A stretch of DNA of 53,462 nt from an uncultured Muribaculaceae bacterium. Lineage in GTDB: Bacteria > Bacillota_I > Bacilli_A > RF39 > UBA660. The notes beneath the pieces are model-generated. The model saw nothing but the letters and a program-made list of their open reading frames with translations. It was not told the DNA's origin and ran no database searches. Position 1 is the stretch's first letter. Each line of letters starts with the position of its first letter. Shown here in pieces: positions 4,374 to 25,422 of this stretch. Location: the NCBI GenBank assembly GCA_964368535.1, contig CAYJBC010000002.1, positions 3,294 to 56,755 on the forward strand, given 5' to 3'. Position numbers and translations under genes: made by a program.

Positions 4374-4408
4374 TGAAAGAAAAAACTAATTAGTAATCTA
4401 ATTAGTTT
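4374..4408 (-). terminator. Intrinsic terminator closing the fibre operon
   Basis: Perfect 10-bp inverted repeat AAACTAATTA-N6-TAATTAGTTT overlapping the TAG stop at 4398-4400. On the minus RNA it is followed by TTTTCTTTC. Confidence 0.6.
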
Positions 4409-6053
4409 CTTTTTTTGTATTTCTTATTTTATCTGCTTCAATTATGAACCATAATTTTTCAACTGTTAAGCCACATTCTAAAATATGTGTAACTCTTAAA
4501 AATAATTTTACTTGTTCTAAAAGGTTGTCTATATTACCTAATCTTAAATTATCTTCAGTTAAGTTAATATTATTCATTCTGTATTTATCCACTATTACTT
4601 TAGATACATTATAATCATTAAATACTGGTACTGATGATATAACTACATTATTTGGATTACTACAAAAATCATCGAACTTACTAGCATATTCCATTAGTTC
4701 ATCATAATTTTCAGTATTAAATGTATTTTTTAAACCTTTTTTCTTAAAGTAATCATAACCATAATAAAGATTTAAGAAATCATCTAGTGTCACATATTCA
4801 TCTATTAATGATTTAGTTTTAGATAAAAAGTATAACGAATCAACATTTTTATATAAATCTAAAAGTTTGTTACATAAAGTGATTGAATCTGCTTGTAATT
4901 GTTTAAGCGGTTTTGAAGTATCAATTTTTTTGTCAGCAAATTTAAATGCTTTTTTTACATTAAATGATTCCTCTTCAGCTGGTTTAAATATAACAGCATT
5001 AATAGTTGATAGCTCTTCTTCTAAGTCGTCTATTTCATCTTCAATTTGTTCAACTGATTTTTCTAATTTAAATTCTTTTAACATTGATTTCGAATATTCT
5101 ACAAATGGCGTAAATTCATTATATAATTTGAATTCTCTTATTATGTGTTTTAATTTAGTCAAATCAGCATGTAATTTATCTTTTTTTGTCATATCTTTAG
5201 CAGATTCCCTATCTACTACTAATGTATTCATCGCAGTTGTAAATGCTTTACTAGTGTTAAAGAAGTCATTTATATCAACTTCACCTTTAATAGCCATATC
5301 AGTAATATCACTTATACTTTCTTTATTTAAAAGCATATATTCATAGTGTATTTTTCTAAGTTCTTTTACACATTCCTCATAAGAGTGAATATTATTTTTT
5401 CTCTTCATGTCATCTTGAATAGATACTACTTTTTCTTTGAATTTTGATTCATGTTTTTTTATTAATTTTCTAAAATTTAGTTGAATATGGTTTATTATAT
5501 TTGGGTTTACCCAATAACATCTTTCAAATATAGGCTCTACATTTATATATTTTTTATCACCTGATTGATAAGCTATAAAAAATTCAGACATATAATCATT
5601 TACATAACATGATACATCAAAATCAGCAGCAGTTAAATTAACACCTATAATTTCGAACTTCTTTATAAATTTTGAAATTACATCATTTACTGTCGGAAAA
5701 TCGAAATCCGCAAAGTTAGATATTTCATATAATAAATTATCAAATCCTAATTTTTCATAATATGTATTAATAGGTAATAGAATTTTTCTTAATTCTTGTA
5801 ATTCTTTTATCCTGTTAAGAAGTTTATCTACTTCTTCTTTAGAAGATACATTTTTGTCTGCTATATCGATGGATCTACTCTTGACTTCAATGTATTTTTT
5901 TACATTCATATTATAATCATTGTATTTTTTTTCAATTTCATTTATCTTTTCTAAAACATCTTTTACATTTGATTTAGTTTTCGTAGGCATAGATGAAATT
6001 ATTTCTTTTTTTAGTTCACTATCTTCAGTAATATAAGTTAAAAAATTATTCAT
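4398..6053 (-). CDS. Hypothetical cytoplasmic coiled-coil-rich protein, last gene of the fibre operon
   Basis: The track ORF starts at a TTG (6059). ATG at 6053-6051 sits 6 nt after GGAGG, so I prefer MNNFLTYITEDSELKK... No TM segment or signal peptide. Long K/E-rich helical stretches. I recognise no family. Confidence 0.6.
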   Translation of the reverse strand: MNNFLTYITEDSELKKEIISSMPTKTKSNVKDVLEKINEIEKKYNDYNMNVKKYIEVKSRSIDIADKNVSSKEEVDKLLNRIKELQELRKILLPINTYYEKLGFDNLLYEISNFADFDFPTVNDVISKFIKKFEIIGVNLTAADFDVSCYVNDYMSEFFIAYQSGDKKYINVEPIFERCYWVNPNIINHIQLNFRKLIKKHESKFKEKVVSIQDDMKRKNNIHSYEECVKELRKIHYEYMLLNKESISDITDMAIKGEVDINDFFNTSKAFTTAMNTLVVDRESAKDMTKKDKLHADLTKLKHIIREFKLYNEFTPFVEYSKSMLKEFKLEKSVEQIEDEIDDLEEELSTINAVIFKPAEEESFNVKKAFKFADKKIDTSKPLKQLQADSITLCNKLLDLYKNVDSLYFLSKTKSLIDEYVTLDDFLNLYYGYDYFKKKGLKNTFNTENYDELMEYASKFDDFCSNPNNVVISSVPVFNDYNVSKVIVDKYRMNNINLTEDNLRLGNIDNLLEQVKLFLRVTHILECGLTVEKLWFIIEADKIRNTKKETN

Positions 6054-6218: not shown

Positions 6219-7262
6219 TTATAAACCATATCCCGCTAAATCTTTAAAGAAATTAAGCGTTACATTTACTAAGGCTCCTGTTGAATATACTTCTAAACTA
6301 TCAACATCTTGTCCTTCTATCCATATATATACTCTTATTTTAGTTATACCATGTGGTAACTCAAATAATCTATCATCTAAATCTGTTATTGTTTCTTGCT
6401 CTGCAAAGTATTCTGTATTCAGTGGTATATTACTATGCCCTGAGTCATGTTCTAGATACTTACCTTCATTTATGACTGCATATGTAGGAACATATTCTCC
6501 ATTTGTAATATCTATACCATATCTTTTTAATTTTCCTATTGAATAATCACTATGCTCCGTACTATTTGGTTCATATATAGTTGAAAAACATTCATTATTA
6601 CATTCTAGATTTTGCACAGTCTGTGCATCTGCATTTTTATCTGGGGTGAAACCTTGCCACGCTATACCGATTCTTATCGAATTAAACAATCCAGGAATTT
6701 CTTCTTCATAACCTTCATTTAAGTATACTCCAGTACCATCATAAAGATATAAATTATCACTGTATGGTGTGTTACTTATATTTTTTAAAAACACGTCAAA
6801 TGCTACGTATCTACTTCCTAAACTATTTTCTTCATCATAATATATTGTATCTAGGTATCTTCTTCCATTATCTTCTAAATAATCTAATCTAGAATTTTCA
6901 AAAAAAGTAAAATATTTATTATTCGCATCAATGATTCCATTTGATGAAACTGGAACTAAACCATTGTTAGACCATTTATTATTATGATCAGGGTATTCAT
7001 CAGTTATTCCGTATAATATGTTTTCTTCATTTACTATTATTTCACTACCATAATTTACACCATCAAGCGAAGCATATAAACCTGTTTCTCTATTAACTGT
7101 TAATTTAACAAAATCTACAGTAGCATCTATTGAAGATGAAAACCAGGCGTATGTAACTACTATTAAAATTAATCCGACACAAAAAGCAAAAATTAATAAT
7201 ACATTAAAATTTATTTTTCTCCTTTTTATGTCTAATTGTTTTTTGTTTTTTTTACTAGTCAT
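6219..7262 (-). CDS. TasA/camelysin-like fibre protein paralogue with SipW-cognate-type signal peptide
   Basis: 347 aa. N-terminus is K/R-rich plus TM, ending VVTYAWFSSS. Shares LDG..Y, GLVPVSSNG, YVAFDVFLKN, SIRIGIA and IYEPN blocks with 7364..8668 and 8694..10019. C-terminus ITKIRVYIWIEGQDVDS...GALVNVTLNFFKD. SD AGAGGGA. Confidence 0.65.
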   Translation of the reverse strand: MTSKKNKKQLDIKRRKINFNVLLIFAFCVGLILIVVTYAWFSSSIDATVDFVKLTVNRETGLYASLDGVNYGSEIIVNEENILYGITDEYPDHNNKWSNNGLVPVSSNGIIDANNKYFTFFENSRLDYLEDNGRRYLDTIYYDEENSLGSRYVAFDVFLKNISNTPYSDNLYLYDGTGVYLNEGYEEEIPGLFNSIRIGIAWQGFTPDKNADAQTVQNLECNNECFSTIYEPNSTEHSDYSIGKLKRYGIDITNGEYVPTYAVINEGKYLEHDSGHSNIPLNTEYFAEQETITDLDDRLFELPHGITKIRVYIWIEGQDVDSLEVYSTGALVNVTLNFFKDLAGYGL

Positions 7263-7287
7263 ATTTTTCCCTCTTAACTAAGATGAA

Positions 7288-7309
7288 GGAGTAACCATTA
7301 GGTTACCCC
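7288..7309 (-). promoter_or_regulatory. GC-rich intercistronic stem-loop between two fibre paralogues
   Basis: Minus RNA GGGGUAACC-uaau-GGUUACUCC (9 bp including one G-U). It is by far the most GC-rich hairpin in the locus. The following tract UUCAUCUU is a poor U-run, so this is more likely an attenuator or mRNA stability/processing element than a full terminator. Confidence 0.45.
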
Positions 7310-7363
7310 TTTTATCCTAATTTAATTTATTTACAAATTATTATTACATCAATAATTATTATA

Positions 7364-8668
7364 TTATGGTGTAAAGTCAGCTTCTGTAAATTTTTGTTTA
7401 GTAAATCCAAAGTTAACAAGTATTTGTGCTCCAGCAGCAGAAAGGTCCATATTATCTAGGTCATTTCCTTCTAGGTATACATATACTCTTACTTTAGTAA
7501 TACTATTTGGCGCTAAAGTCATAAATGCTGGACGATCATTACCTGCGATTAATTTTTCAGCATCAGTAAATGTATCAACATTTTCAACTAATGTTCCAGC
7601 AGCAACTGGATCAAAAGTATTGTGTCCATCATATATATCAAATCTAGCAGCAGAATTTATTGCTCCACTTACAGCCCATGTATCTAATTCTAGATTATCT
7701 GCAAAAGCAGTAAATCCTGGTTCAACATTTCCGTCTGTGAAATCTCCATCTGCTCCTGTATCTGGTGTAGATACATTACATTGAGTATCAGTGTAAACTG
7801 AATTTCCATCTACATCATCAGCAGATCTATTATCACAGTATGTATTAAACCAATTAATTGCGTTATCTTCATGATTTCTTTCATTTGGTTCATAGATTAC
7901 AGCATCTGTACAGATACCAGTAACTCCACCAGCAACAGTACCAGTAGCACCATTACAAGTGATTCCACCGATAAGTGTTCCATCTTCACTTGATCCATCT
8001 ACACGTCCAATTGGTGCGAATGCCACACGAACTGAATTTTCAATTCCTTGATCAGCAGCTCCAGTATAACCTAGGTCATTACCTTCAGCGTCAGTTGTTC
8101 CAGCAGCAGCTACGCTTACTCCTGAATCAGTTAATAAATAAATTTCTTCTTCATCAGCTAAATTATAATCTTCAATATATTGAGCTCCTGTGAAGTTTTT
8201 GATAAATAAGTCAAATGCAACGTATCCATCTACTTCAGTAGTAGTGTTAGCTAGTTGATCAGCAACTAATCTAAAACCACCACCAGTGTGTGTATAACTT
8301 CCTCTTTCGAAAAGTTCAAGTTTAGAAGTGGCAGGATTAACTGTACCTACAGTTGAAATAGGCATTAAACCATTTCCACCCCAACTATTTGTGTTCCCAT
8401 CATAAACTTGACTAGGTGTTGCAGCTGCATCATCATATGCAGTCCAAGTTCCTTCAGTTAAAGTAACTGTTTCACCCCAGCTAAGTCCATTTAATGATAT
8501 TAATAAGTTATCTGTTGAAGCAATTTCTACTTGGAACTCACTTACAGTAACTTCTTGTAAACCAATAAACCATGCATAAGTTGATACTATTAGTATAACT
8601 GCACTAAATCCAGCAAATATCAAGATATTTTGGATTTTTTTATTAGCTTTTTTATTATTTTTACTCAT
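7364..8668 (-). CDS. TasA/camelysin-like fibre protein paralogue (candidate major subunit)
   Basis: 434 aa. N-terminus ...ILIVSTYAWFIGLQEVTVSEFQVEIASTDNLLISLNG. Blocks VDGYVAFDLFIKNFTGAQYIE, GIENSVRVAFAP, GITC...TGIC, IYEPN, TFTDAEKL. C-terminus RPAFMTLAPNSITKVRVYVYLEGNDLDN...GAQILVNFGFTKQ. SD AGAGGAGA. Confidence 0.7.
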   Translation of the reverse strand: MSKNNKKANKKIQNILIFAGFSAVILIVSTYAWFIGLQEVTVSEFQVEIASTDNLLISLNGLSWGETVTLTEGTWTAYDDAAATPSQVYDGNTNSWGGNGLMPISTVGTVNPATSKLELFERGSYTHTGGGFRLVADQLANTTTEVDGYVAFDLFIKNFTGAQYIEDYNLADEEEIYLLTDSGVSVAAAGTTDAEGNDLGYTGAADQGIENSVRVAFAPIGRVDGSSEDGTLIGGITCNGATGTVAGGVTGICTDAVIYEPNERNHEDNAINWFNTYCDNRSADDVDGNSVYTDTQCNVSTPDTGADGDFTDGNVEPGFTAFADNLELDTWAVSGAINSAARFDIYDGHNTFDPVAAGTLVENVDTFTDAEKLIAGNDRPAFMTLAPNSITKVRVYVYLEGNDLDNMDLSAAGAQILVNFGFTKQKFTEADFTP

Positions 8669-8693
8669 ATTATTTCTCCTCTATATCTTTCTA

Positions 8694-10019
8694 TTATGCT
8701 TCATATATTTGTTTACTGAATCCAAAGTCAACAGTTATTTGTTTTCCTTCGATAGCCCAGTCATAGTTATCTATGTCTTGACCTTCTAAGTAAATATATA
8801 CTCTAATTTTTGTAATACTATTTGGTGCTAAAGTCATGATTGATGGTCTTTCATCAGCATTCAATAATTTTTCAGTGTCTGTAAATGTATCAAAAGCTTC
8901 TAAAGTTGCAGCTCCAGCATTTGGATAAGCAGTTGTTCCATCAGGCATTGTATCTGGCACTTCTGGTACAGCTAAACCATTAAATCCACCATCATAAATG
9001 TTAACATCCATATCAGATGAAATATCAGTTGCTACTGCATATGTAGTATAAGCAGTTCCATTAGCTATTGCTATACAACCTTTAGTTGTAAATCCAGCAC
9101 CAGTTGGAGCAGTTGCTGTTCCTCTATAACCACAGTTATTATTATAATAATTAATTGCACCATCTACGTGAGCTTTATCATTTGGTTCCCAAATACTAGC
9201 AGTTCTACAAATACCAGTAACTACACCAGCTTCACTTGTACAAGTAATACCTGTGATAGTTGCAGCATCAGTTTCAGTACCTTCAACACGTCCTACTTGA
9301 GCAAATGCTACACGAACAGAGTTTTCGATTCCTGAAGCTTGTCTAATTGTATCTTCTGCAGCATCAGTAGTTCCACCGTTATCTCCAGTTAGAGTTACTG
9401 CTACATTTGATTCATCAATTAAATAAATTGCTTCTTCATCAGCAGGATTTAATGCTTCTATATATTGAGCCCCAGTATAATTTTTAACGAATAAGTCAAA
9501 AGCAATATATCCATCTACTTCAGCCACTGGTTGATGTCCAGCAGTAGCATCATCACCATCTAAAGTGTTTTCTACTTGACTAGCCATTAGTCTAGTACCA
9601 TATGGTGGTGTAGGACTTAAACTTGCTTTTTCATACATTACTAATCTTGAAGAAGTAGTATCCATTTCTCCAACAGATGACATAGGTATTAATCCAACAG
9701 GATCGTTTACACCATCACCATCAGTATCAGTATCTAATCTTCCAGTCCATGAGTTTGTATTTCCAACATAAGCACTTGTTCCAGTAACATCTTCAATTGT
9801 ATCTGGATCAATATCTATTGTATCTGACCAATTAGCACCATCAAGTGATAATTCTAAACTATCAGTAGCAGCGATTTTTACTGTAAAATCTTCTACTCTA
9901 ACTTCGTCAAGACCAATAAACCATGCATAAGTTGAAACTATTAAGATAATCGCAGTTAATGTTGTTACTGCAGCTAAATTTCTTATGTTTCTTTTTTGTT
10001 TTGCGTTTCTTTTTTGCAT
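8694..10019 (-). CDS. TasA/camelysin-like fibre protein paralogue (candidate major subunit)
   Basis: 441 aa, roughly half-identical by eye to 7364..8668. STYAWFIGLDEVRVEDFTVKIAATDSLELSLDG, VDGYIAFDLFVKNYTGAQYIE, GIENSVRVAFAQ, GITC...TGIC, WEPN. C-terminus RPSIMTLAPNSITKIRVYIYLEGQDIDN...GKQITVDFGFSKQ. Confidence 0.7.
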   Translation of the reverse strand: MQKRNAKQKRNIRNLAAVTTLTAIILIVSTYAWFIGLDEVRVEDFTVKIAATDSLELSLDGANWSDTIDIDPDTIEDVTGTSAYVGNTNSWTGRLDTDTDGDGVNDPVGLIPMSSVGEMDTTSSRLVMYEKASLSPTPPYGTRLMASQVENTLDGDDATAGHQPVAEVDGYIAFDLFVKNYTGAQYIEALNPADEEAIYLIDESNVAVTLTGDNGGTTDAAEDTIRQASGIENSVRVAFAQVGRVEGTETDAATITGITCTSEAGVVTGICRTASIWEPNDKAHVDGAINYYNNNCGYRGTATAPTGAGFTTKGCIAIANGTAYTTYAVATDISSDMDVNIYDGGFNGLAVPEVPDTMPDGTTAYPNAGAATLEAFDTFTDTEKLLNADERPSIMTLAPNSITKIRVYIYLEGQDIDNYDWAIEGKQITVDFGFSKQIYEA

Positions 10020-10036
10020 AACTTCTCTCTTTCCTC

Positions 10037-10735
10037 CTATTTTTCGACTATTTCTGAATTAAATTTCATTTGTAGTTTAATTTCTCCACCAATAATATTA
10101 TTAGTGGTTTCTGGATCTTTACCTTCCAGCCATATTACAATAGTATATTTTGTAATATCACCTGGAGCAAAATCCAAAGTATCATCAACCACAACTAGCT
10201 TATCAGATGCAAAAGGCACAGTTCCTTCTTCAGGCTCACCAGAAGCTGATTCTTTTGCGTAAGTGACTACTTCACCATTCTTGTAAACTTTAATCCTTAC
10301 AGCTTCGTCGACATTTCTTATAACATCATCTATAAGTATTTCAGAATGGTAATCAGTTACAGCTTCTCCTGTATTTTCGATGTAAAATGTATAAGAAATA
10401 TAATTATCTCCATTATTAGATCCGCCCCCATGCGAATCTAAGTCAGCAGGTAACCAACTTTCTGCTACATTATCGAAAGTATCAATCGATGGTGCAACTA
10501 ACTCCGATCTGTACGTTTTATAATTAGGATCATCATAAATGATAAGACCCCTCTCATAATACAAATTCCTATCGAGTGTTATCGTGAAATTTCCACTATT
10601 ATAAACAAACCCAATTACAAGATACGAAAATATAACAGCTAAGATTAGAACTACTATTGCTAATTTAGCAATTTTAATTAACTTCTTATCCCTTCTTATT
10701 TTCTTAGCATCAATTGTAAATTTATTTTCTTCCAT
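10037..10735 (-). CDS. Membrane-anchored TasA-like protein lacking the AWF signal motif (possible anchor or nucleator)
   Basis: The track ORF begins at 10807. ATG at 10735 (MEENKFTIDAKKIRRDKK...) follows AAGGAG. One TM (IAKLAIVVLILAVIFSYLVIGFVY). C-terminus GDITKYTIVIWLEGKDPETTNNIIGGEIKLQMKFNSE matches the family strand motif. Confidence 0.55.
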   Translation of the reverse strand: MEENKFTIDAKKIRRDKKLIKIAKLAIVVLILAVIFSYLVIGFVYNSGNFTITLDRNLYYERGLIIYDDPNYKTYRSELVAPSIDTFDNVAESWLPADLDSHGGGSNNGDNYISYTFYIENTGEAVTDYHSEILIDDVIRNVDEAVRIKVYKNGEVVTYAKESASGEPEEGTVPFASDKLVVVDDTLDFAPGDITKYTIVIWLEGKDPETTNNIIGGEIKLQMKFNSEIVEK

Positions 10736-10811
10736 ATTTATCAATCTCCTTGATATCAACAAGAAATATTTACTCTTGAGTGTATTGATATCTTGTCTAT
10801 AATACAAATTA

Positions 10812-10840
10812 ATTATATAAAATAAAACATTCTAAGTCAA
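10812..10840 (-). promoter_or_regulatory. Sigma-A-type promoter for the 10735->4398 fibre operon
   Basis: On the minus strand TTGACT-17 nt-TATAAT (-35 at 10840-10835, -10 at 10817-10812), about 70 nt upstream of the start codon. Confidence 0.5.
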
Positions 10841-10963
10841 TATAATTTGTATTATTTTGTCGAATATTTTTGTAAAGTTTACTATATACTTTACTAATGA
10901 CGTTTTAACTTTAATTTATGTGTAAAATTTTACGTTATTTTATGATTATTTACATAAAATGTA

Positions 10964-10992
10964 TTGCGATATATACATATTATATATATAAT
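10964..10992 (+). promoter_or_regulatory. Sigma-A-type promoter for 11015..11638
   Basis: TTGCGA-17 nt-TATAAT, then AAGGAAG SD 7 nt before the ATG. Confidence 0.45.
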
Positions 10993-11014
10993 GATGTTGT
11001 AAAGGAAGATTGTT

Positions 11015-11638
11015 ATGAAAAAAAGAGTAAGAATATTATTTTTGTTTGTATCTGTTGTAATTACCCTTAGTATGATTAGCAGCACATATTCTCGGTATGT
11101 AGCTGATACTACTGGAACTGTTGATGTTTCTCTTTCCAAATGGCAAATACTTGTAAATGAAACAGATATTGTTCAAAATGCATCTTCAACCATAGAGTTT
11201 ACTCCTCATATTGAACAAAATAATAATGTGACTAATAATACATTAGCTCCTACATCTACTGGATACTTCGATATAGAAGTAGATCCTACAAATGTTGATT
11301 TATCTTTTAGATACAGTATTGAATTAAGTTCTGCAAGTACTGATGTTCCTGATTTTATAATTAATAAATACGAAATACTTGAAGGTGATACTTTAGTTAG
11401 CAATCCTTTGAATATAATAAATATAAGTAATGGTATTATAGAAAACACACTGCTTTATAATAGTAATGTTGAAAATTATATACATGAAAAGTTTACTATA
11501 AGAGTTTACTTTGAATGGTTTGATGGTGATACTAATATAATGACTGATGAGCAAGATACCGAAGTTGGTAATAGAGCTGCAATCGAAGATTTAAAAGTTG
11601 CAATACAAGCTAATGTAACATTTGAACAAGTTATTTAA
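11015..11638 (+). CDS. Small TasA/camelysin-like secreted protein, the only plus-strand gene in the locus
   Basis: 207 aa. N-terminus MKKRVRILFLFVSVVITLSMISSTYSRYVADTTGT, a variant of the T-Y-A-x-F-x-D class signal. FTIRVYFEWFDGDTN and KVAIQANVTFEQV parallel the RVY..EG.D and terminal-strand motifs of the paralogues. Confidence 0.55.
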   Translation: MKKRVRILFLFVSVVITLSMISSTYSRYVADTTGTVDVSLSKWQILVNETDIVQNASSTIEFTPHIEQNNNVTNNTLAPTSTGYFDIEVDPTNVDLSFRYSIELSSASTDVPDFIINKYEILEGDTLVSNPLNIINISNGIIENTLLYNSNVENYIHEKFTIRVYFEWFDGDTNIMTDEQDTEVGNRAAIEDLKVAIQANVTFEQVI

Positions 11639-11652
11639 TAACTTGTTTTTTT
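11625..11652 (+). terminator. Intrinsic terminator between convergent genes
   Basis: AACAAGTTAT-tta-ATAACTTGTT (10-bp stem spanning the TAA stop) followed by TTTTTTAT. A second small hairpin TTATGC-A8-GCATAA follows at 11651-11670. Confidence 0.65.
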
Positions 11653-11671
11653 ATGCAAAAAAAAGCATAAG

Positions 11672-12898
11672 CTATATTGTGCTTAATGCTGTTTTATCTG
11701 CGATTATTACAGGTACTACTTTACATTGATTAGTTTTATTATTTGAATATAGTTGACTGCGAGATGTATTTATCGATCCTATTGCAAAACCATTATCTAC
11801 ATCATACTCACTATTAGTCCAAACACAAGTTGCTGTATATAATGAAGAAAATTTATCATTAGAATATGTAAAGTTACCTCCATATGTTATAGTATCTGTT
11901 ATTTTTTTATCACTTCTACCATCATAGTTAACTGAACCTATTATAATATCTGACATATTTTCTTTTTCTATATAACTGTTTACAATATCTTTAGATATTA
12001 TATTAAGTACATCTGTTGCTTCTAAAGGTCTTGTATCAACTGTCCATGAAGCAACTCTTGAATTATATGTTGTTAGATACGCATCATAACTGCTTAATGA
12101 AGCTGCTGATTTTACATCAGGTAATAATGTAACTGTATTTTCAGATAATAAATTATCTATATCAATTACATTTGTTTTTAAACAAGTTGAGCTAATTGTT
12201 GTACAAGATTTATTATTAACTACATCAAATAATACTATGTCTCCTAATCTATAATCTCTATCCGAAGCTTCTGGCGAAGATTCAACTGTTTGTTCAGCTA
12301 TTACATCAATTACTATTTCAATCGGATTTTTTACTTCATAAGATGAATCCAATGCTAACTTATCATTTTCACTTACTGCAAAATTATATGCCTTTAATCC
12401 CCATTGACTATCTAATGCATCATTTCCAGTATCAAGAGGCCATGATATCGATACTTCAAAAGTACTATATCCAGTTCTGTACGGTAATAGTGTGTCACTT
12501 AAACTTACATCTATATGAAATGGATATTCATGCGCTAGTGCATCCTCTATTTGTTCGCTAGTTCTTACTGGATCGGTTAATAGCAAATCTTCTTCGAAAA
12601 CTCTAGCAGATTCAACATATGTATAAAGTTTTGCATCTGCATCTCCAAAATTATTGATTTCAATTACTTCAGTAACAGTTTCCATTCCTGGATATATTTC
12701 TGCAGATGTAATTACTATACTATTTGTAACTGATGTACTATCATCAGTGAATTCTATGTTCCACGCTCTTACATCTACAACAGCTGATACTGTTGTGCTA
12801 TTCATTCCTGTAAACCAGGCATAAGTTACTGAGGCAAACAATATAACTATAAGTATTAGAACGAATATTTTTAATTTTGTAATATTTCTTTTAATCAT
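11672..12898 (-). CDS. TasA-like N-terminal domain protein with SipW-cognate-type signal and a distinct C-terminal domain
   Basis: 408 aa. N-terminus ...LILIVILFASVTYAWFTGMNSTT. FEVSISWPLDTGND...IEIVIDVIAEQ strand pattern. C-terminal half ends CVWTNSEY...KVVPVIIADK, echoing the YTMS...VVRPVISIK end of 878..2515. SD AAAGGAG. Confidence 0.6.
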   Translation of the reverse strand: MIKRNITKLKIFVLILIVILFASVTYAWFTGMNSTTVSAVVDVRAWNIEFTDDSTSVTNSIVITSAEIYPGMETVTEVIEINNFGDADAKLYTYVESARVFEEDLLLTDPVRTSEQIEDALAHEYPFHIDVSLSDTLLPYRTGYSTFEVSISWPLDTGNDALDSQWGLKAYNFAVSENDKLALDSSYEVKNPIEIVIDVIAEQTVESSPEASDRDYRLGDIVLFDVVNNKSCTTISSTCLKTNVIDIDNLLSENTVTLLPDVKSAASLSSYDAYLTTYNSRVASWTVDTRPLEATDVLNIISKDIVNSYIEKENMSDIIIGSVNYDGRSDKKITDTITYGGNFTYSNDKFSSLYTATCVWTNSEYDVDNGFAIGSINTSRSQLYSNNKTNQCKVVPVIIADKTALSTI

Positions 12899-12919: not shown

Positions 12920-13492
12920 TTATTCCCTTGGTATATTTCTTCTTTTTGCTTCCTTTTCAAGCATTCTACTTATTATTTCATACCCTATAATAAATAGTAC
13001 TGGAACTATTATTAATAAGTACATACCTAAAGGTGTACTTATAATATTGTATATAAATGATAAAAATGCTGCGTTATGAACTACTACTCCATATATTTGT
13101 TCTTCACTAACTATTGGATCTTCTACCTCATTAGCTATACCTTTAGTTCTGAATAAAAGATTCCCATCTTCGTCAGTTTCTATATCGATAACTGCATGTG
13201 TAACAACTTTATCTTTGAATTCCCCTTCAGTTCCCAGATAACTTATATCGTCACCTATTTCTATATCATTTGGGTCTTTTTCTATACTTATTAAAATGTC
13301 TCCTACCTCATACTTAGGAATCATACTACCAGTTAATACACTAAACATTCTTATATTTAAAAATGCAAATTCGTTATTACTAAATCTCTGAAGACCAACC
13401 ATAAGCACAAAACATATTATAAATATACCTATTAATATTTTGGTCAAAAGTTTTATTATAGAGAAAACCTTTTTAACTTTCTTATTTTTCAT
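12920..13492 (-). CDS. sipW: Signal peptidase I, SipW (ER/archaeal, Ser-His) type
   Basis: 190 aa. N-terminal TM, VLTGSMIPKYEVGDILI (catalytic Ser box), VVTHAVIDI (His box), FRTKGIANEVEDP (TKGD-N box), C-terminal TM plus basic tail. Lies immediately upstream of the TYAWF-signal proteins. Confidence 0.8.
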   Translation of the reverse strand: MKNKKVKKVFSIIKLLTKILIGIFIICFVLMVGLQRFSNNEFAFLNIRMFSVLTGSMIPKYEVGDILISIEKDPNDIEIGDDISYLGTEGEFKDKVVTHAVIDIETDEDGNLLFRTKGIANEVEDPIVSEEQIYGVVVHNAAFLSFIYNIISTPLGMYLLIIVPVLFIIGYEIISRMLEKEAKRRNIPRE

Positions 13493-13500
13493 CTTATCAA

Positions 13501-14640
13501 TTACAAGTATTCTTGTACCCTTTCTAAGTATTCATCCATAGCATTTTTAAATTTATTTTTAATATCTTGATTTGCTACTTTACTTTTATCATCCATATTA
13601 TGATTGTCATTACCTAAATTATTTGCGATAAGTTCAAGTATTTCATCATCTGTTATATTAAATCCACATTTCTTTAATAAATCTAATAATCTCTTTATCT
13701 CATCATTTATTAATGATAATGCATATTTATTTAATTTTTCTTTTTGTTCTTTTTTTGTTTTACAAACACTTTCTAATACATAAAAATCTACTAAAAATGA
13801 ATGATCTAATAATCCCATCAATAAATCTGAACCATCAGAATCTAAACCTTTTCTTTTATCACCTTGATTATCAAGATAATTATATAAAAAGTTCCATAAC
13901 TCTACTGCCATTTTGAAATTAGGATTTTTAAGAATTATATTTGTCTTCTTAATTGGTGGATTAACTAGTTTAACTCTGGCTTTTTCCAACTGTTTAAATA
14001 ATTCACTTCTTTGCCAAGAAGACAAATAATCTTTAACCCTATTAATTCTTTTTCTTATACTGCTTATTTCATCTAATAAATCTTTATTTAAATCTGGCTT
14101 TGATACATCTGTTGCTTTAAGAAGAACTTGCATTTTAATTTCTTCATTCGCTACTCTTGTAGTACCCATATATTCTAGTTTACGAGTACGATCTATTAGA
14201 AGTTCATCTAGTTCTTTTTCCTTTTTTGCTATAAATCTAGCCAGAAAATAAATAACTGTGTAAAGGAATCTATTTTCATAAATATTATAAGTTTCTTCAC
14301 TTTTAATATTTAGTATTTTAGATGGTCTAACATCACCTTTGGGAGTAACATCATCAATATAATAGTTATGAACTGCTAAGTCTTTAATACTTTCAACAGT
14401 TATTTTTTTAGCCTTTTCAATTAATTCAACTTCCGCTTCATTTATTAGTATTAATTTAGGATTTCTTACAACATTGTCAAGGTAAGGGCAAGACTCTTCA
14501 ACGATATCTATCCAATCAAAGTTGATTGAGTCTCCATCCATTTTTGCTTTGTATTGCATATCTGATGTTATTTTTTCAAAGAACACTTTATTCTTTTTCT
14601 TAATCTCAACATCAATATCCTTATCGATTAAATCAGCCAT
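13501..14640 (-). CDS. DUF2357/McrC-N-like partner protein with no recognisable nuclease motif
   Basis: 379 aa with SD AGGGAGG. TYNIYENRFLYTVIYFLARFI and KNPNFKMAVELWNFLYNYL resemble the ENRF-type motifs I associate with DUF2357/McrC-like partners of McrB ATPases. I see no PD-(D/E)xK-like D...(D/E)xK block and no TM segment. Starts 23 nt after the McrB-like gene. Confidence 0.4.
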   Translation of the reverse strand: MADLIDKDIDVEIKKKNKVFFEKITSDMQYKAKMDGDSINFDWIDIVEESCPYLDNVVRNPKLILINEAEVELIEKAKKITVESIKDLAVHNYYIDDVTPKGDVRPSKILNIKSEETYNIYENRFLYTVIYFLARFIAKKEKELDELLIDRTRKLEYMGTTRVANEEIKMQVLLKATDVSKPDLNKDLLDEISSIRKRINRVKDYLSSWQRSELFKQLEKARVKLVNPPIKKTNIILKNPNFKMAVELWNFLYNYLDNQGDKRKGLDSDGSDLLMGLLDHSFLVDFYVLESVCKTKKEQKEKLNKYALSLINDEIKRLLDLLKKCGFNITDDEILELIANNLGNDNHNMDDKSKVANQDIKNKFKNAMDEYLERVQEYL

Positions 14641-14663: not shown

Positions 14664-16181
14664 TTAAATTGATTTTTTTATGTATTCTATAAATTCAATA
14701 CATTCTTTCATAACACCTTTACCACATTCCTTATTTAAGAATGAAATAAAAGGATCTAACTCATCACGTATAAACGCTATATTTAATTGTTCAAATTTTC
14801 TTAATATTTTTTTAGCTATAAAGTAATCTATGGCTTCAATCTCTGATCCGCCACATGCTACATATACTGGCGCAAATGTTTTAAGCTGTTTCATAATACG
14901 ATTACCAAATGCTATTCTAAAATGATTAATAACATAATCATCTATTTTAGCCAACTTATTTAAACCATCTTCAGTTACTGGATATTTTACAATAGCCTCT
15001 TCAAATAAATTTTCTAAATATGTTGCATTCATTGGCAATGCATCTTGTTTTCTTGATTCAAATGGTTTAATTTTTTTGTTAATATCTATCGGTATCGCTC
15101 TGTCATAAACCTTATCTGTTACCATATAAGTTGAATCATCGTTATTAATTGTACCTATATACCAAAGATTTCCAGGCAATCTCAATTTACCATTATCAAG
15201 TTTTGCTGCGTCATGTGGCCAACCACTTGTAACAAGCTCAATAACCCATTCATCTCTTGCTGGAATTTCTAGAATAGATAACATTTCTGCAAAATAATAT
15301 TCTACTCTAGCAATGTTCATTTCATCTAGTATAATTGTATGAACATTATCATCAAAACTCGCTGCATAAATTTCTCCAAGTGCTTCAGTTTCAGTGAATT
15401 TTTTAGTAAATTCATTGAAATATCCTAGGAATTCAGTTTTATCTTTCCAAGATGGCTGAACTGATGCTACTACTGAATCATTAGCAACAAATTTACCCCA
15501 CGCATATGCTAAAGAAGTTTTACCTGTTCCTGATATACCTTGAAGAATTATTAACCTACTTGATGCAAGGCCTGCGATAAATGTTCTTAACAGGGAATGA
15601 TCATAAAATAATTTTAGACTACTTGCAGAAAATGCTCTAAAATCATCTGTCATTTGCTCTAATGTAAAATTATTATTGTAATTTTCAGGTGTATAATCTA
15701 CAAACTGCTCATCAATAAGTTCAAGTTTTGGAAATCTATGGGCATTTTCTTTTGTTTCTTCATCAACTTCATCTTCTGGATTAATACCATCTTCGCCCTC
15801 TTCATCAGGATTTAAGCCTAATTGAGAAACTTTCATAGCCATTAATTCAGCATTTTCTTTCATTAATTTTCTAACTTGATTATTTAATTTATCTACTTCT
15901 TCTAGTAGTGAATCATTACTTATTTTATGAGTTTTATTTCTCACAAATTTTCTTACATATAAGAAAATAAGGAAAGCTATTAAACCTATAATAAGTACAA
16001 TAATACCTACTGCTATTGCTGTAAATAGCCATTCAGGTCCATCAAATTCTTTGCTGTAATTATCTATAATTTTTACATAATTACCGAAATTAAATATTCC
16101 TACTATACCTTCCCATATTGATTGTAATCCTGAAACAAATATATCAAAGAATTCGTAAAAAAATCTTAAAAATGTATCCAT
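14664..16181 (-). CDS. Membrane-anchored McrB-family AAA+ (AAA_5) NTPase
   Basis: 505 aa. TM helix (WLFTAIAVGIIVLIIGLIAFLIFLYV), coiled-coil, acidic linker. Then Walker A LQGISGTGKTSLA, SVQPSWKDKTEFLGYFN, Walker B plus family signature IILDEMNIARVEYYFAEMLSILE, and IGTINNDDSTYMVTDKVYDRA (the McrB MNxxDR-like block). Start overlaps the stop of the upstream gene by 1 nt (TAATG). Confidence 0.7.
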   Translation of the reverse strand: MDTFLRFFYEFFDIFVSGLQSIWEGIVGIFNFGNYVKIIDNYSKEFDGPEWLFTAIAVGIIVLIIGLIAFLIFLYVRKFVRNKTHKISNDSLLEEVDKLNNQVRKLMKENAELMAMKVSQLGLNPDEEGEDGINPEDEVDEETKENAHRFPKLELIDEQFVDYTPENYNNNFTLEQMTDDFRAFSASSLKLFYDHSLLRTFIAGLASSRLIILQGISGTGKTSLAYAWGKFVANDSVVASVQPSWKDKTEFLGYFNEFTKKFTETEALGEIYAASFDDNVHTIILDEMNIARVEYYFAEMLSILEIPARDEWVIELVTSGWPHDAAKLDNGKLRLPGNLWYIGTINNDDSTYMVTDKVYDRAIPIDINKKIKPFESRKQDALPMNATYLENLFEEAIVKYPVTEDGLNKLAKIDDYVINHFRIAFGNRIMKQLKTFAPVYVACGGSEIEAIDYFIAKKILRKFEQLNIAFIRDELDPFISFLNKECGKGVMKECIEFIEYIKKSI

Positions 16182-18649
16182 TATTTTTCCTCCCTATTAA
16201 TTATTAATTTTGATTCTATATCATCTTTAATAATTTTATTTTTGAAATTATCGAAAACAACTTTCTCTAATTCTATTATCTTGTTTGTTCCTTTATCTAT
16301 AAATATATACTCTGCTAATGCTATACCAGTTTTATTTTTACTAGCAAATTTAGTTTCATCATTAATGTACATTGCTATTCTAAATCCATTTTTTCTTAAA
16401 TTTTTAATACTAGCAGCTTTTTTCATAAATAAATCGTAATTTATAAGATAAACAATATTTTTCTTAGCGTATTCTTCATTATTTTGTTTAAATAATCTTT
16501 CAAACTTAGCATCCTTTAAACATAAGCTATTTGGTATCATTACCATATATTCATTTACAAATTCTCCAGTAAGCATGTCATGAGATAACCTTGCTTGAAG
16601 TAGTGTAAGAAGCACATTAAGTTTGTCTTCTGCAACTATTCCTTCCATGTAAGCTTTAGTTACCACTTTATCACTGTATACTTGTGAAAAGTTTATATTA
16701 TGTTTTAAATCCAATAGGAATTTAGCTTTTTCAGTTTTAAAACTATGGTATATAAGTTCAAACATTTCTGTGTTAAGTCTATCTAAGAAATATTTTGAAG
16801 CTGATCTATAGTGTTTTTGAGAATGTATGATTTCTTTAACTGTATACTCTATATTATCATTTTCTATATCATAATCATGAATAAATTTAATAATTTCTTT
16901 TGTATAAAGTATTTTTTTGTTTCTCATATTAATATCTAGGTCCACTAAATATTCTAGTTTTGATATAAGTAATATTAAACTCGAGTATTTTATTAATTTT
17001 TCTTCATAAGATTTATCATTTCCTGAGTATACACTTGCAAGTTTGGCACTATCTTCTTCTAAGGCATATGACACTCTTGTTATTAGTTTTTTTATTCTTG
17101 CTGCATAACTTTTAGAAAAACCATTTTTTTCACTAATTACTGTTGTACTATTAAGAACTGCATATCTAGGTTTTTTTGCTGCTGCTTTTCTTGTTTCCAA
17201 TGCTGCCACTTTTTCACTAAATATATTGTAATATTTCGACTCCAAATAAGATTTAATTAAAGCTTTTTTTATTGATGCTTCATTAGTTAAAATTTTACTT
17301 TCACCAAATATTAAATCTATAGTTTTATTTATTTCTTCTTCTTTAATGGCCATAGTTCTAGCTATTATATTTTTACTTCTTTTATTTTCTGGTTTATTAA
17401 AAATCATTTCTAATGTGAATTTGGCCTCTTCTTCATCATTTTTCTTTTCTTTTTCTTTAATTGGTTCTTCCTCAACTGTTTTCTCAACTATTTCGGGTTG
17501 TTCAACAATTTCTTCTTCAACTTCAGGCATTTCATAATCTTCATCATCTGTACTTATTATGAAAGAATCATTTGATACTGGAATATCAACTTTTTCCTCT
17601 ACCACTTCATCAACTGTTTCTTCGTTTATATTCATTTCAAGAGGTAGATTTTCTTCAGTTTCTTCTTCAATAGTATTTATTACTTCTTCTTTTTGACTTT
17701 CAGCGAATCTTTCTTTAATTGTTTGTCCTTTTTCTGCACTTCTTGCTGGCTCATTACCTAATGGTTCATCTCCAGTAATAATCGGTCTATCATTAAAATC
17801 ATTTGGCTTTTCAATTTCTTCTTCAAAAGATTTTTCACTTACTAAGTCTTTGTCTTCATCAACTTCAATCATTCTAAAAAACATTGTTTTACTTAATTCG
17901 TCTTCTTTATCATAATCATCAATAATTTTTTCTTCTTCTATTTCATTTTCTTCATCAACATCAAATTTAGTGTGATCTTCTAACTTTTCTTCATAATCTG
18001 TAAATTTAGGTTGTGAAGCTACATTTTCAAAGGATTTTGTTGTGTTATCTTTAAAAAATTCTTCTTCTTCTTTTTGGTTACTAAATTTATTTTTAATTTG
18101 ATTAAACAAATATTTTATTTTTTTTATCACCTTGTTAAAACCTCCTTTTTTTAATTCTTTTGTATTAAATATATATACCGTTATTATTAATGCTATTAAA
18201 ACATATGGGTTAAATAATGTGTTTCTGAACACTCCAAATAAAGGTATTATCGTTACTACTTCACCAACTATTTGCTCTGTTCCAATTGGGTCATCTTCTT
18301 TGTTATTAGCGTCCCCTTTTGTAATATAAGTTTCACTATATTTTTCTATAACACGATGGGTAATAAAATTTCCATCTTGTTTGAATGTAACAATATCATC
18401 TAAATTAAAACTTTTCTGTTCTTTAACTATAATCCAATCACCAGCACTAATTTCTGGTTCCATGCTTCCTGTTTGTACTTCAAACATTGTGTAACCGAAA
18501 AAACTGGAATAATCATTTCCCAGAATTTTAACTTGTACAACATTATATAAAGATATCAAAAGTATTATTCCAAAAATAAATATTAAGACATCTAATAAAA
18601 TATTAGTAGCTTTTTTCATGTATTTATTAGCACCAATATTTGACAACAT
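16181..18649 (-). CDS. SipW-type signal peptidase domain fused to a ~650-aa acidic/helical C-terminal extension
   Basis: 822 aa. Residues ~15-165 are TM, then FEVQTGSMEPEISAGDWIIV, FITHRVIEK, YITKGDANNKEDDP, then a second TM (canonical SipW boxes). A long E/D/K-rich low-complexity stretch follows, then a helical domain. SD GGAAGG upstream. Confidence 0.75.
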   Translation of the reverse strand: MLSNIGANKYMKKATNILLDVLIFIFGIILLISLYNVVQVKILGNDYSSFFGYTMFEVQTGSMEPEISAGDWIIVKEQKSFNLDDIVTFKQDGNFITHRVIEKYSETYITKGDANNKEDDPIGTEQIVGEVVTIIPLFGVFRNTLFNPYVLIALIITVYIFNTKELKKGGFNKVIKKIKYLFNQIKNKFSNQKEEEEFFKDNTTKSFENVASQPKFTDYEEKLEDHTKFDVDEENEIEEEKIIDDYDKEDELSKTMFFRMIEVDEDKDLVSEKSFEEEIEKPNDFNDRPIITGDEPLGNEPARSAEKGQTIKERFAESQKEEVINTIEEETEENLPLEMNINEETVDEVVEEKVDIPVSNDSFIISTDDEDYEMPEVEEEIVEQPEIVEKTVEEEPIKEKEKKNDEEEAKFTLEMIFNKPENKRSKNIIARTMAIKEEEINKTIDLIFGESKILTNEASIKKALIKSYLESKYYNIFSEKVAALETRKAAAKKPRYAVLNSTTVISEKNGFSKSYAARIKKLITRVSYALEEDSAKLASVYSGNDKSYEEKLIKYSSLILLISKLEYLVDLDINMRNKKILYTKEIIKFIHDYDIENDNIEYTVKEIIHSQKHYRSASKYFLDRLNTEMFELIYHSFKTEKAKFLLDLKHNINFSQVYSDKVVTKAYMEGIVAEDKLNVLLTLLQARLSHDMLTGEFVNEYMVMIPNSLCLKDAKFERLFKQNNEEYAKKNIVYLINYDLFMKKAASIKNLRKNGFRIAMYINDETKFASKNKTGIALAEYIFIDKGTNKIIELEKVVFDNFKNKIIKDDIESKLIINREEK

Positions 18650-18724: not shown

Positions 18725-18753
18725 AAAAAAAAGTAGACAAATTAATATCTACT
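18725..18753 (-). terminator. Weak intrinsic terminator after the degenerate SipW-like gene
   Basis: AGTAGA-N10-TCTACT hairpin spanning the stop codon, followed on the minus RNA by a T8 run. Confidence 0.45.
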
Positions 18754-19338
18754 ACTTCTTTCTACTTTTTTCGGTTTATTTTTCACTTTTTTTTGTTTTT
18801 TTTCTTCATAAACTCTTGGACTATCATCGTTTCCAAATTTTATTTCAACTATTAAAGCATATATTTGATAAATAAATATTAAGAAACAAGGAACTACTAT
18901 TAAGAAGAAGAACACCCATGTTGATTGTAATAAACCAACATATGTTCCTAAACCACTATATACTTCTGTTGCGCTTCCTGCGATAAATTTAGAAGAATAA
19001 GTCGGTCCATTTTCCAAAGTAACCGCATCTTCATCAATATGAACTTCCCCTACAAAGCCTAACTCTATATTTACTTTATCATTATCATTAATTTGAAATA
19101 AAAATATTTCATCGCCAACGTTAATATCTTTTAATGGTTCTTTTAAAGTAAGAACTAAGTCTCCTTTTTCATATTTTGGAGACGATATTTCATCACCTAT
19201 TATAAGAAGCGATGTGTTATCAAATTGCGTGATTCCAAATTCATCATCTCTATTTAGCAGTAATATTGACATACCTATTGCTATTATAAAAAATAATAAT
19301 ATTAATATTCCCACTATAATTTTTTTTACTATTCTCAT
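18742..19338 (-). CDS. SipW-like paralogue with degenerate catalytic boxes (possible pseudo-peptidase)
   Basis: 198 aa with the same topology as SipW (N-terminal TM, C-terminal TM, K-rich tail). SPKYEKGDLVLTLKEP aligns with IPKYEVGDILISIEKD of 12920..13492, but the GSM Ser box reads GDEISS and no TKG(D/I)AN box is present (LENGPTYSS). SD AGGTGAG. Confidence 0.55.
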   Translation of the reverse strand: MRIVKKIIVGILILLFFIIAIGMSILLLNRDDEFGITQFDNTSLLIIGDEISSPKYEKGDLVLTLKEPLKDINVGDEIFLFQINDNDKVNIELGFVGEVHIDEDAVTLENGPTYSSKFIAGSATEVYSGLGTYVGLLQSTWVFFFLIVVPCFLIFIYQIYALIVEIKFGNDDSPRVYEEKKQKKVKNKPKKVERSSRY

Positions 19339-19421: not shown

Positions 19422-19446
19422 TAAAAAAACTATTAAAAATAGTTTT
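19422..19446 (-). terminator. Intrinsic terminator after argS
   Basis: AAAACTATT-ttt-AATAGTTTT stem followed by a T-run on the minus RNA. The stop codon lies in the stem. Confidence 0.6.
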
Positions 19447-25396: not shown

Positions 25397-25422
25397 AAAA
25401 AAGGAATATTAAATTTCCTTTT
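25397..25422 (-). terminator. Intrinsic terminator after the DD-carboxypeptidase gene
   Basis: AAAAGGAA-loop-TTCCTTTT hairpin overlapping the stop, with a T-run on the minus RNA. Confidence 0.5.

Follow-up and report, generated by a model that had tools for sequence, protein, structure and literature searches.

The stretch of DNA analysed here (53,462 nucleotides of contig CAYJBC010000002.1, referred to below as the window) carries between positions 6219 and 12898 six genes for proteins of 347, 434, 441, 232, 207 and 408 residues, five of which share an N-terminal leader. We conclude that these genes encode the exported cargo of a conserved two-operon locus (∼4.4–19.3 kb) of the kind named CoCoPALM, rather than members of one TasA/camelysin family, and we put the probability of this reading at roughly 0.6. 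The cargo proteins are probably parts of an undescribed cell-surface structure, which could plausibly be a fibre. The unusual parts of the locus are its link to McrBC and the fold of its main subunit; its elaboration is less unusual, since similarly elaborate TasA-superfamily loci are already described in a preprint (10.64898/2026.01.04.697558).

Four of the proteins, all encoded on the minus strand, begin with a basic stretch followed by a single hydrophobic helix that ends in the pentapeptide TYAWF: the 347-residue protein (6219–7262; leader VVTYA↓WF, the arrow marking the predicted cut), the 434-residue protein (7364–8668; IVSTYA↓WF), the 441-residue protein (8694–10019) and the 408-residue protein (11672–12898; ASVTYA↓WF). 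The TYAWF codons, read from the sequence, lie at positions 7140–7154, 8567–8581, 9918–9932 and 12812–12826, respectively. A sequence-only reading of this DNA had described the four open reading frames (ORFs) with their basic stretch, transmembrane (TM) helix and TYAWF, and this description is confirmed: four such pentapeptides are present where 0.0006 are expected from the amino-acid frequencies of the window. The 207-residue protein, encoded on the plus strand (11015–11638), carries TYSRY at the equivalent place (leader SSTYS↓RY; codons 11084–11098, plus strand). When all window ORFs were scanned loosely for a hydrophobic region followed by [TS][YFWL][AS]x[YFW], only the four TYAWF proteins, the 207-residue protein and one CNNM membrane protein, ∼65 residues in, were returned. 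The leaders of the five cargo proteins have the same layout, which consists of a basic n-region, a hydrophobic stretch of ∼15 residues and T-Y-[A/S], followed by x-[F/Y].

The motif is retained among homologues of each type. [ST][YF]AWF was found in all 120 homologues of the 441-residue type, T[LFY]AWF in 119 of 120 proteins of the 408-residue type and T[YF]S[RK]Y in 120/120 proteins of the 207-residue type. In an alignment of 63 sequences of the 441 family, T30, A32, W33 and F34 are invariant, and residues 21–40 carry 3.3–3.7 bits per column, equal to the core strands. The second operon begins with the gene of the 232-residue protein (10037–10735, minus strand), in which a single N-terminal TM helix precedes a small acidic ectodomain; the cleavage motif occurs in none of 59 orthologues.

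The position of the predicted cut can be compared with that of TasA. The TasA sequence is identical to PDB entry 8AUR from A28 onward, which indicates that TasA is cut as GTWA↓AF, with T at −3, A at −1 and F at P2′. A cut after TYA or TYS in the five window proteins would likewise place small residues at −3 and −1 and an aromatic residue at P2′. A related arrangement, GGGTYA↓YFSD, is present in six genes on Bacillus plasmids, of which five bear the annotation ‘TasA family protein’ or ‘spore coat-associated protein’. According to a published study, TasA owes to its aromatic P2′ residue that LepB-type peptidases process it poorly and that SipW accepts it as a substrate (PMC10269814). A leader of the SipW-substrate kind is thus plausible for the window proteins, cleavage itself being predicted, and it looks like a distinct sub-class that lacks the flanking GGG and SD residues.

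As judged by profile comparison, the five leader-bearing proteins comprise at least three sequence-unrelated families: the 347/434/441 trio, the 408-residue protein and the 207-residue protein. The 434- and 347-residue proteins are paralogues of the 441-residue protein at 49% and 30% identity, respectively (HHalign probability 100%), the 347-residue protein being the conserved single-copy member of the 441-type family. After the leaders had been trimmed, 100% probability was obtained only for the 441–347 pair, and ∼6% or less for any pair that included the 207- or the 408-residue protein. The 207 family aligned to the 441 family over 34 leader columns only, and the 232-residue protein aligned to the 441 and 347 families at ∼14–31% over its last ∼70–90 residues only, the leader-trimmed values being 14–28% over 72–90 C-terminal columns. 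The proposal of the sequence-only reading that all six proteins are paralogues was consequently rejected on leader-free HHalign; at least four sequence families are represented. Early values of 84–95% for the 408-residue protein against the 441 and 347 families, and of 86–95% for proteins of related loci against TasA or the 408-residue protein, were mostly leader-driven and collapsed on trimming, in the case of the 408-residue protein against the 441 and 347 families to <1%.

The same proposal had assigned a common late motif and a common terminal strand to all six genes. Both hold for the 347/434/441 trio, to which the motif ITK(I/V)RVY..EGxDxD and the ..FGF.KQ end are confined. A looser version of the motif is present in the C-terminus of the 232-residue protein (ITKYTIVIWLEGKDPE...KLQMKFNSE), the 207-residue protein bears only a loose resemblance to it (FTIRVYFEWFDGD ... 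ANVTFEQ), and the 408-residue protein lacks it; in the latter, the strand ...IEIVIDVIAEQ closes the N-terminal domain at approximately residue 205, and a second domain follows. Even in the 441 type, the supposed terminal strand is often not the last one: in many homologues ∼43 residues on average lie beyond it, often as an immunoglobulin (Ig)-like DUF5011 domain. The 347-residue protein ends in ...NFFKDLAGYGL, a C-terminus that is kept in the form KDlaGYe.

The mature proteins are acidic (pI 4.05–4.22; D+E 15.2–16.2%), and scans of Pfam, NCBIfam, PHROGs and PADLOC assigned the cargo proteins to no family. The 441-residue protein has >2700 homologues, likewise without family annotation. No C-terminal hydrophobic anchor was detected in any of 120 homologues, on which ground sortase-type anchoring was rejected; a loose LPXTG-like string was seen in 14 of the 120. 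Weak matches to the chaperone-usher pilin SafA, found for 9 of 63 members of the 441 family (best E 0.0029), were treated as chance. In the 441-residue protein, two cysteine pairs are invariant or nearly so (C260/C271 and C296/C315), and the penultimate strand is followed by a loop of the invariant pattern E-G-Q-D-x-D-N-x-D (residues 412–420). These features point to disulfide bonds and a calcium-binding site in a protein located outside the cell, and by analogy with AbpX and the cannulae the loop could bind calcium.

Next we consider the assignment of the six proteins to the TasA/camelysin family, which the sequence-only reading had put forward and which was not upheld. In the hmmscan run that it had suggested, Peptidase_M73 (PF12389, gathering threshold 22.5 bits) gave no match at E≤1 for the six window proteins. 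No match was obtained in 47 scanned relatives of the 207-residue protein, and a single sub-threshold one (E 0.063) was obtained among 56 ∼200-residue relatives of the 408 N-terminal domain. HHalign probabilities to TasA with leaders trimmed were 13.9% for the 232-residue protein, 3.5% for the 207-residue protein and <1% for the 408, 441 and 347 families, as measured with a shallow TasA alignment of seven sequences that limits sensitivity. The C-terminus of the 232-residue protein falls on the last two TasA strands at 6–14%. PDB sequence searches with the 441- and 207-residue proteins and five family profiles yielded nothing significant.

The AlphaFold and Foldseek comparisons, also suggested at the outset, gave different outcomes for the two proteins modelled. 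The beta-rich model of the 441-residue protein is confident (predicted local distance difference test score, pLDDT, 82.9; predicted template modelling score, pTM, 0.83). No Foldseek match at E≤0.001 was found for it in the PDB or BFVD, and no TasA, AbpA, AbpX or CanA is among the 50 PDB matches listed, in which the only TasA-superfamily entry is the Saci_0406 thread (7pnb, E 3.2). TYAWF lies within a predicted helix spanning residues 3–35, and the first mature strand (residues 41–50) has a pLDDT of 69, below that of the core. The model of the 207-residue protein (pLDDT 74.5) is a generic eight-strand jellyroll. Foldseek ranks phiX174/alpha3 protein G, a Banna virus protein and Cry1Ac highest for this model; TasA (5of1 and 8aur) is found at ranks 14 and 19, with E values of 4.5e-3 and 6e-3, TM-scores of 0.33–0.36 and a probability of 0.97. 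The predicted fold of the 207-residue protein is therefore compatible with a TasA-like jellyroll, without being specific to TasA.

The mature N-terminal domain of the 408-residue protein (residues ∼28–205) was also followed through its relatives. Its profile recovered 408 cluster representatives among 1.84 billion proteins, many of them ∼200 residues long, with a [TS][YF]AWF leader, an lYPGM...N.GE hairpin, a WPYESGDDELDTxWG motif and an ...A.Q end. From this comparison, the window protein reads as the ∼200-residue domain with an added C-terminal domain, likewise of ∼200 residues, that contains conserved Cys residues. The top two PDB matches of the profile of these ∼200-residue relatives are AbpX entries (9sj2 and 9rhp), with insignificant E values of 0.18–0.21, and the relatives align co-linearly with TasA from the PG...N.G hairpin to the ...A.Q end, at a probability of 1.7%. 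Taken together, these comparisons leave TasA/camelysin membership of the main 441-type family unsupported; a link to the TasA superfamily is possible, at most a very remote one, and is suggested only for the small jellyroll components.

Upstream of the 408-residue gene, on the same strand and with spacings of −1 to 92 nt, lie five genes. They encode a 190-residue signal peptidase I of the endoplasmic reticulum (ER)/archaeal, SipW-like type (12920–13492, minus strand), a 379-residue protein with the McrC N-terminal domain DUF2357 (13501–14640, minus), a 505-residue membrane-anchored McrB-like AAA+ GTPase (14664–16181, minus), an 822-residue protein with a SipW-type peptidase N-terminus (16181–18649, minus) and a 198-residue pseudo-peptidase (18742–19338, minus), whose gene is the first of the first operon. 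Three peptidase-fold genes thus flank the McrBC-like pair in one tight operon, a layout that is the same in the related genome and metagenome loci.

The 190-residue protein, which has two TM helices and GSM and TH motifs, and the N-terminus of the 822-residue protein, with its TGSMEP and THRV motifs, match TIGR02228 at 78.4 and 77.8 bits, respectively (cut-off 51.85); both miss the Bacillus SipW equivalog model NF046067 (71 and 67 bits versus 190). The two align to each other with an HHalign probability of 99.2%. The ∼660 residues that follow the peptidase in the 822-residue protein, presumably cytoplasmic, are made up of an acidic stretch of low complexity and a C-terminal region that is conserved and matches no family; a version of ∼325 residues occurs in related lineages. 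The 198-residue protein aligns to the 190-residue peptidase over its whole length (96.4% over 163 columns) and has the topology of the full signal-peptidase fold, namely TM helix, domain and TM helix, with the catalytic Ser and His replaced. By these motifs, the 190- and 822-residue peptidases are catalytically intact and the 198-residue protein is a dead paralogue.

The 379-residue protein matches PF09823 at 30.5 bits (threshold 23.3), and no nuclease domain was detected in it by the Pfam scan. The 505-residue GTPase contains a Walker A motif GISGTGKTS, a Walker B motif IILDEMN and a GTINNDDST segment that is invariant among orthologues. Its sole PDB matches are to E. coli McrB (6hz4, E 8e-4), matches to Pfam AAA_5 and NCBIfam McrB are weak, and it matches the PADLOC candidate PDC-M26A with an E value of 3.6e-37. 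A TM helix (residues 56–74) is followed by a heptad-like, coiled-coil-like stretch (LLEEVDKLNNQVRKLMKENAELMAM).

These properties recall CoCoPALM, in which the McrB-like GTPase carries a fused FtsB-like TM/coiled-coil domain, McrC homologues are often nuclease-less and signal-peptidase-family proteins are associated (Bell et al., eLife 2024, PMC11090510). That source names the class only and defers its description; the supplementary files of this CoCoNuT paper contain no text on CoCoPALM, and we found no later paper that describes it. The gene set of the locus fits the published description, as far as can be told from sequence, through its McrB-like GTPase with N-terminal TM and coiled-coil segment, its nuclease-less DUF2357 protein and its operon-linked signal-peptidase proteins, the NxD and FtsB-like details being ambiguous. 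What PMC11090510 does not have is the cargo families and their shared leader.

The locus is conserved well beyond the window and recurs in hundreds of contigs of uncultured Bacilli. Among species-representative genomes titled as Bacilli, Mollicutes, Tenericutes or Bacillota metagenome-assembled genomes, 71 loci were compared, most of which contain a module with the order 232–(441-type)n–347–551, where 551 denotes the gene of a conserved 551-residue protein. The number of 441-type copies varies from 1 to 6 per locus and is most often 2. The module of peptidase, McrBC, 408-type and 207-type genes either adjoins the 232–551 module, as in the window, or sits ∼5 kb away. Where the modules are apart, three further leader-bearing genes lie between them (L062, 12833–17436; L049, 9398–13123; L078, 1–3443). 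The first encodes 750–1240 residues with OmpL47-type domains and a ...PTLA↓RYKNR leader. The second encodes 175–185 residues with GITYS↓YF and LKPGD...N; it has near-threshold Peptidase_M73 matches of 18.4 and 19.7 bits (E 8e-4 and 2e-3) and aligns to TasA at 94.5% by HHalign, or 67.6% without the leader. The third encodes ∼300 residues with the leader TFA↓KYVSN. All three are absent from the window, as judged by the leader scan of all ORFs, and from its closest relatives (L001–L006). The genome record OW818670.1 (1.49 Mb) carries the peptidase/McrBC half of the locus after the three extra genes.

A scan of metagenomes with the motif WP[YF]E.G.D..DT.WG, taken from the 408 N-domain family, added 120 independent loci of 23–35% G+C. 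When their ORFs were assigned to the best-scoring hidden Markov model, 91 were of SipW type, 82 of DUF2357 type, 66 of McrB type, 96 of 207 type, 57 of 232 type and 54 of 347 type. The order of genes matches that of the window: dead peptidase, (extras), peptidase, McrB-like, DUF2357 and SipW-type, followed by a ∼200-residue 408-N-type gene, an oppositely oriented 207-type gene, and 232-, 347- and 551-type genes, the 347-type gene coming directly after the 232-type gene. Not one of the ORFs in these 120 loci has the 441 model as its best match, from which we infer that the 347-residue type is ancestral and that the 434- and 441-residue proteins are lineage-specific duplicates.

These data suggest the following scheme. 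The Sec pathway would export the preproteins, and the SipW-type peptidases would then cleave them behind TYA or TYS, the aromatic P2′ residue disfavouring the housekeeping enzyme. The acidic mature proteins, with N-termini WF... or RY..., would assemble outside the cell into a multi-subunit structure, most likely a fibre, whose bulk would be formed by the 347-, 434- and 441-residue proteins, with the latter two supplying a variable surface, and in which the 207- and 408-residue proteins would be conserved single-copy minor components. The 232-residue protein, whose TM helix would remain in place and whose gene comes first, like tapA, could serve as anchor or nucleator. The McrB/McrC-like pair might provide assembly or control factors, acting as a motor or checkpoint, and the dead 198-residue peptidase might act as a chaperone, as proposed for streptococcal SipA. 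In a bolder form, which we advance only tentatively, the locus would encode an uncharacterised Gram-positive surface-filament machine in which proteins of several unrelated folds, the main 441/347-type fold being without a solved relative, bear the TYA↓WF leader, are cut by SipW-type enzymes and are assembled or controlled by a membrane-anchored McrB-type GTPase, an McrC-like activator and a dead-peptidase chaperone, making it a functional analogue of the type IV pilus built entirely from non-homologous parts.

Several points weigh against the CoCoPALM-cargo reading. Cleavage, secretion and polymerisation are steps that we infer from the sequences. The leader model TIGR04088 was approached by the 347-residue protein only, at 13.6 bits against a cut-off of 19, and by no other window protein; among relatives it gave sub-threshold matches only, in 1 of 63 members of the 441 family and 1 of 56 ∼200-residue relatives of the 408 N-domain. 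The earlier description of the leader as SipW-cognate thus stands with regard to its T-x-A/x-F geometry, as in GTWA↓AF of TasA, and to the adjoining TIGR02228 peptidase, and falls short at this model. The compact loci contain single-copy cargo only and present no obvious ‘major pilin’, and the term ‘pilin-like’ for the 441 type rests on context, its fold being without structural neighbour. Placement of the GTPase in the NxD clade that defines CoCoPALM is ambiguous: the invariant INNDDS allows two readings, either NxD with a D after it, the usual form in CoCoPALM GTPases (PMC11090510), or, aligned gap-free with E. coli MNTADRS, NxxD. No FtsB/DivIC family model of Pfam or NCBIfam matched its N-terminus, and the PADLOC candidate match may leave room for a role in defence.

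Three other explanations have to be weighed against the same data. All six proteins might be diverged jellyrolls of the TasA/camelysin superfamily that form a heteropolymeric fibre by donor-strand complementation, with major subunits, minor or tip subunits and an anchor. This would account for the TasA-like leader geometry beside SipW-type peptidases, the Foldseek probability of 0.97 between the 207-residue jellyroll and TasA (5of1/8aur), the appearance of AbpX as the top two PDB matches (E 0.18–0.21) of the 408 N-domain relatives together with their insignificant co-linear TasA alignment, the 6–14% placement of the 232-residue C-terminus on the last two TasA strands, and the near-threshold Peptidase_M73 proteins of related loci; a low pI and an aromatic mature position 2 are also recorded for AbpX homologues in the preprint. 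We nevertheless consider it unlikely: no window protein has a significant leader-free sequence or profile match to TasA, the confident 441 model retrieves none of TasA, AbpA, AbpX or CanA among the matches listed (the best is the thread 7pnb at E 3.2), the TasA matches of the 207 model have TM-scores of only 0.33–0.36 and rank behind viral and toxin jellyrolls, and the six proteins are not mutual paralogues.

A second explanation, to which we give little credence, holds that the leaders stay uncleaved and that the products sit in the membrane as type II single-pass proteins and serve as a surface coat or as adhesins, with TYAWF as an interfacial aromatic belt or intramembrane recognition motif and the peptidase-like proteins as scaffolds. 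TYAWF does lie inside helix 3–35 of the 441 model, one of the three peptidase-fold proteins is dead and such homologues have been proposed as chaperones in streptococcal pili (PMC2797073), the 232-residue protein keeps a TM anchor without the motif, and C-terminal Ig-like additions (DUF5011) would suit adhesins. However, the motif is an exact fit to the −3/−1 rule and the aromatic P2′ of TasA and is common to unrelated mature domains, as is typical of a processing signal; the catalytic GSM and TH motifs are retained in two neighbouring peptidases; and conservation to the extent seen at residues 21–40 (3.3–3.7 bits per column) is rare in a plain TM anchor. Finally, the exported proteins could be surface sensors, decoys or effectors against phage within a conflict or defence system derived from McrBC, as the match of the McrB-like protein to PDC-M26A (E 3.6e-37), the otherwise restriction-associated McrBC radiation to which the GTPase belongs (PMC11090510) and the variation in 441-type copy number and appended domains, which phage pressure would predict, might suggest. 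This appears very improbable given that the McrC-like protein has no detectable nuclease domain, that the locus sits among housekeeping genes (ArgS, SufS/SufU) in the lineage of the window, that its gene order is kept over wide divergence and that none of the scanned cargo or peptidase proteins matches PADLOC.

Among characterised systems, the locus is best filed as a variant of SipW-dependent surface-protein loci and CoCoPALM. Like the B. subtilis tapA-sipW-tasA and C. perfringens sipW-bsaA loci, it places a dedicated ER/archaeal-type peptidase beside substrates whose leader has T-aromatic-A followed by x-F. Unlike them, it encodes mature domains that are not recognisable as TasA/Peptidase_M73, and it comprises three peptidase paralogues, at least five cargo genes of several families and an McrBC-like pair. 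The initial claim that it is much more elaborate than these paradigms was, however, overstated: in the preprint (10.64898/2026.01.04.697558), the loci of AbpX, Tafi, AbpA, the Saci_0406 thread and CanA combine a peptidase of the TIGR02228 type with an accessory protein, anchors and minor or tip subunits, a set that includes all of these elements for AbpX and Tafi. The same text describes AbpX-like subunits of the TasA superfamily as acidic (pI ∼4, ∼15% D+E), the second residue of the mature chain being aromatic. The window locus shares with them the peptidase in a multi-gene setting, mature proteins of pI 4.05–4.22 and F or Y at the predicted mature position 2, although acidity and an aromatic mature position 2 are not specific to the TasA superfamily. 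It differs in that the locus proteins scanned yielded neither a DUF5305 accessory protein nor an SLH or LPXTG anchor nor a sortase, in that its 441-type subunit has no structural match to solved members, and in its McrBC-like proteins, which do not figure in the locus description in the accessible preprint text.

More distant parallels can be drawn with pili. The pilus islands of S. pyogenes and S. pneumoniae encode SipA/LepA, a protein with a non-catalytic signal-peptidase fold for which a chaperone function has been proposed (PMC2797073), and thus resemble the window locus in having, among genes for a surface fibre in their case, a dead signal-peptidase-fold protein, here of 198 residues. 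SipA is a homologue of the bacterial P-type peptidase, whereas the 198-residue protein is of the ER/archaeal type, and streptococcal pili are polymerised by sortase from LPXTG pilins; neither sortase nor LPXTG was seen here. With type IV pili and Com pseudopili the resemblance is one of analogy only, in that several subunit families with one special leader, a dedicated peptidase and a membrane NTPase are encoded in one locus. No component is homologous, the cut would be made on the outer side by an enzyme of the signal-peptidase-I type, and the NTPase is McrB-like, not PilB-like.

The cargo families are large and carry no annotation, and they are widespread among the uncultured low-GC Bacilli sampled in metagenomes of gut, rumen and digesters. 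They supply CoCoPALM, so far a name only, with candidate cargo and with TYA↓WF as a processing site that can be tested. Should the products form fibres, the locus would represent a new surface-appendage system in abundant uncultured gut bacteria and the recruitment of a restriction-type GTPase to envelope biogenesis. Otherwise, the analysis still corrects a TasA annotation that is attractive but unsupported.

The remaining features of the locus concern its expression and surroundings. Shine-Dalgarno sites precede all six genes of 6219–12898, as previously noted. The 232-residue gene, initially given as 233 residues, exists with a slightly different extent: the ORF at 10037–10807 (minus strand) would encode 256 residues from a TTG and 232 from the ATG at 10735. 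We favour the ATG because the orthologue consensus begins there and because a promoter-like site at 10840–10812 would exclude the TTG. This site, TTGACT-17-TATAAT (10812–10840, minus), matches the sigma-70 consensus at 11 of 12 positions, is the best in the region and lies just upstream of the gene. A terminator-like hairpin with an 11-bp stem (7286–7311, minus), identified by consensus scan only and with a weak T-tail, lies between the 434- and 347-residue genes; it may be a partial terminator or attenuator that lowers expression of the distal genes and so sets subunit ratios. The second operon is closed by the gene of the 551-residue protein (4398–6053, minus), which is present in 51 of the 71 related genome loci. 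The protein has no TM helix and no signal peptide, and no family match was found for it in Pfam, PHROG, PADLOC or the PDB.

The G+C content of the window is 23–35%. One flank of the locus encodes ArgS, a P-type ATPase, a CNNM/CBS protein, a PBP5-type D,D-carboxypeptidase, FtsY and RNase J (including 25421–26563 and 19445–21124, both minus), and the other SufS/SufU. These housekeeping neighbours indicate a chromosomal locus, and together with the lack of PHROG matches they make a mobile or viral origin unlikely. A wall-less host was likewise rejected: the PBP5-type D,D-carboxypeptidase in the window implies that the host makes peptidoglycan, and genes for Amidase_3/LysM and SleB-like proteins occur in a related genome. 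Many low-GC contigs with this Bacilli-type locus, L001–L006 and others, are titled ‘uncultured Muribaculaceae’ in third-party annotation (TPA) assemblies, which looks like a labelling error in the public records.

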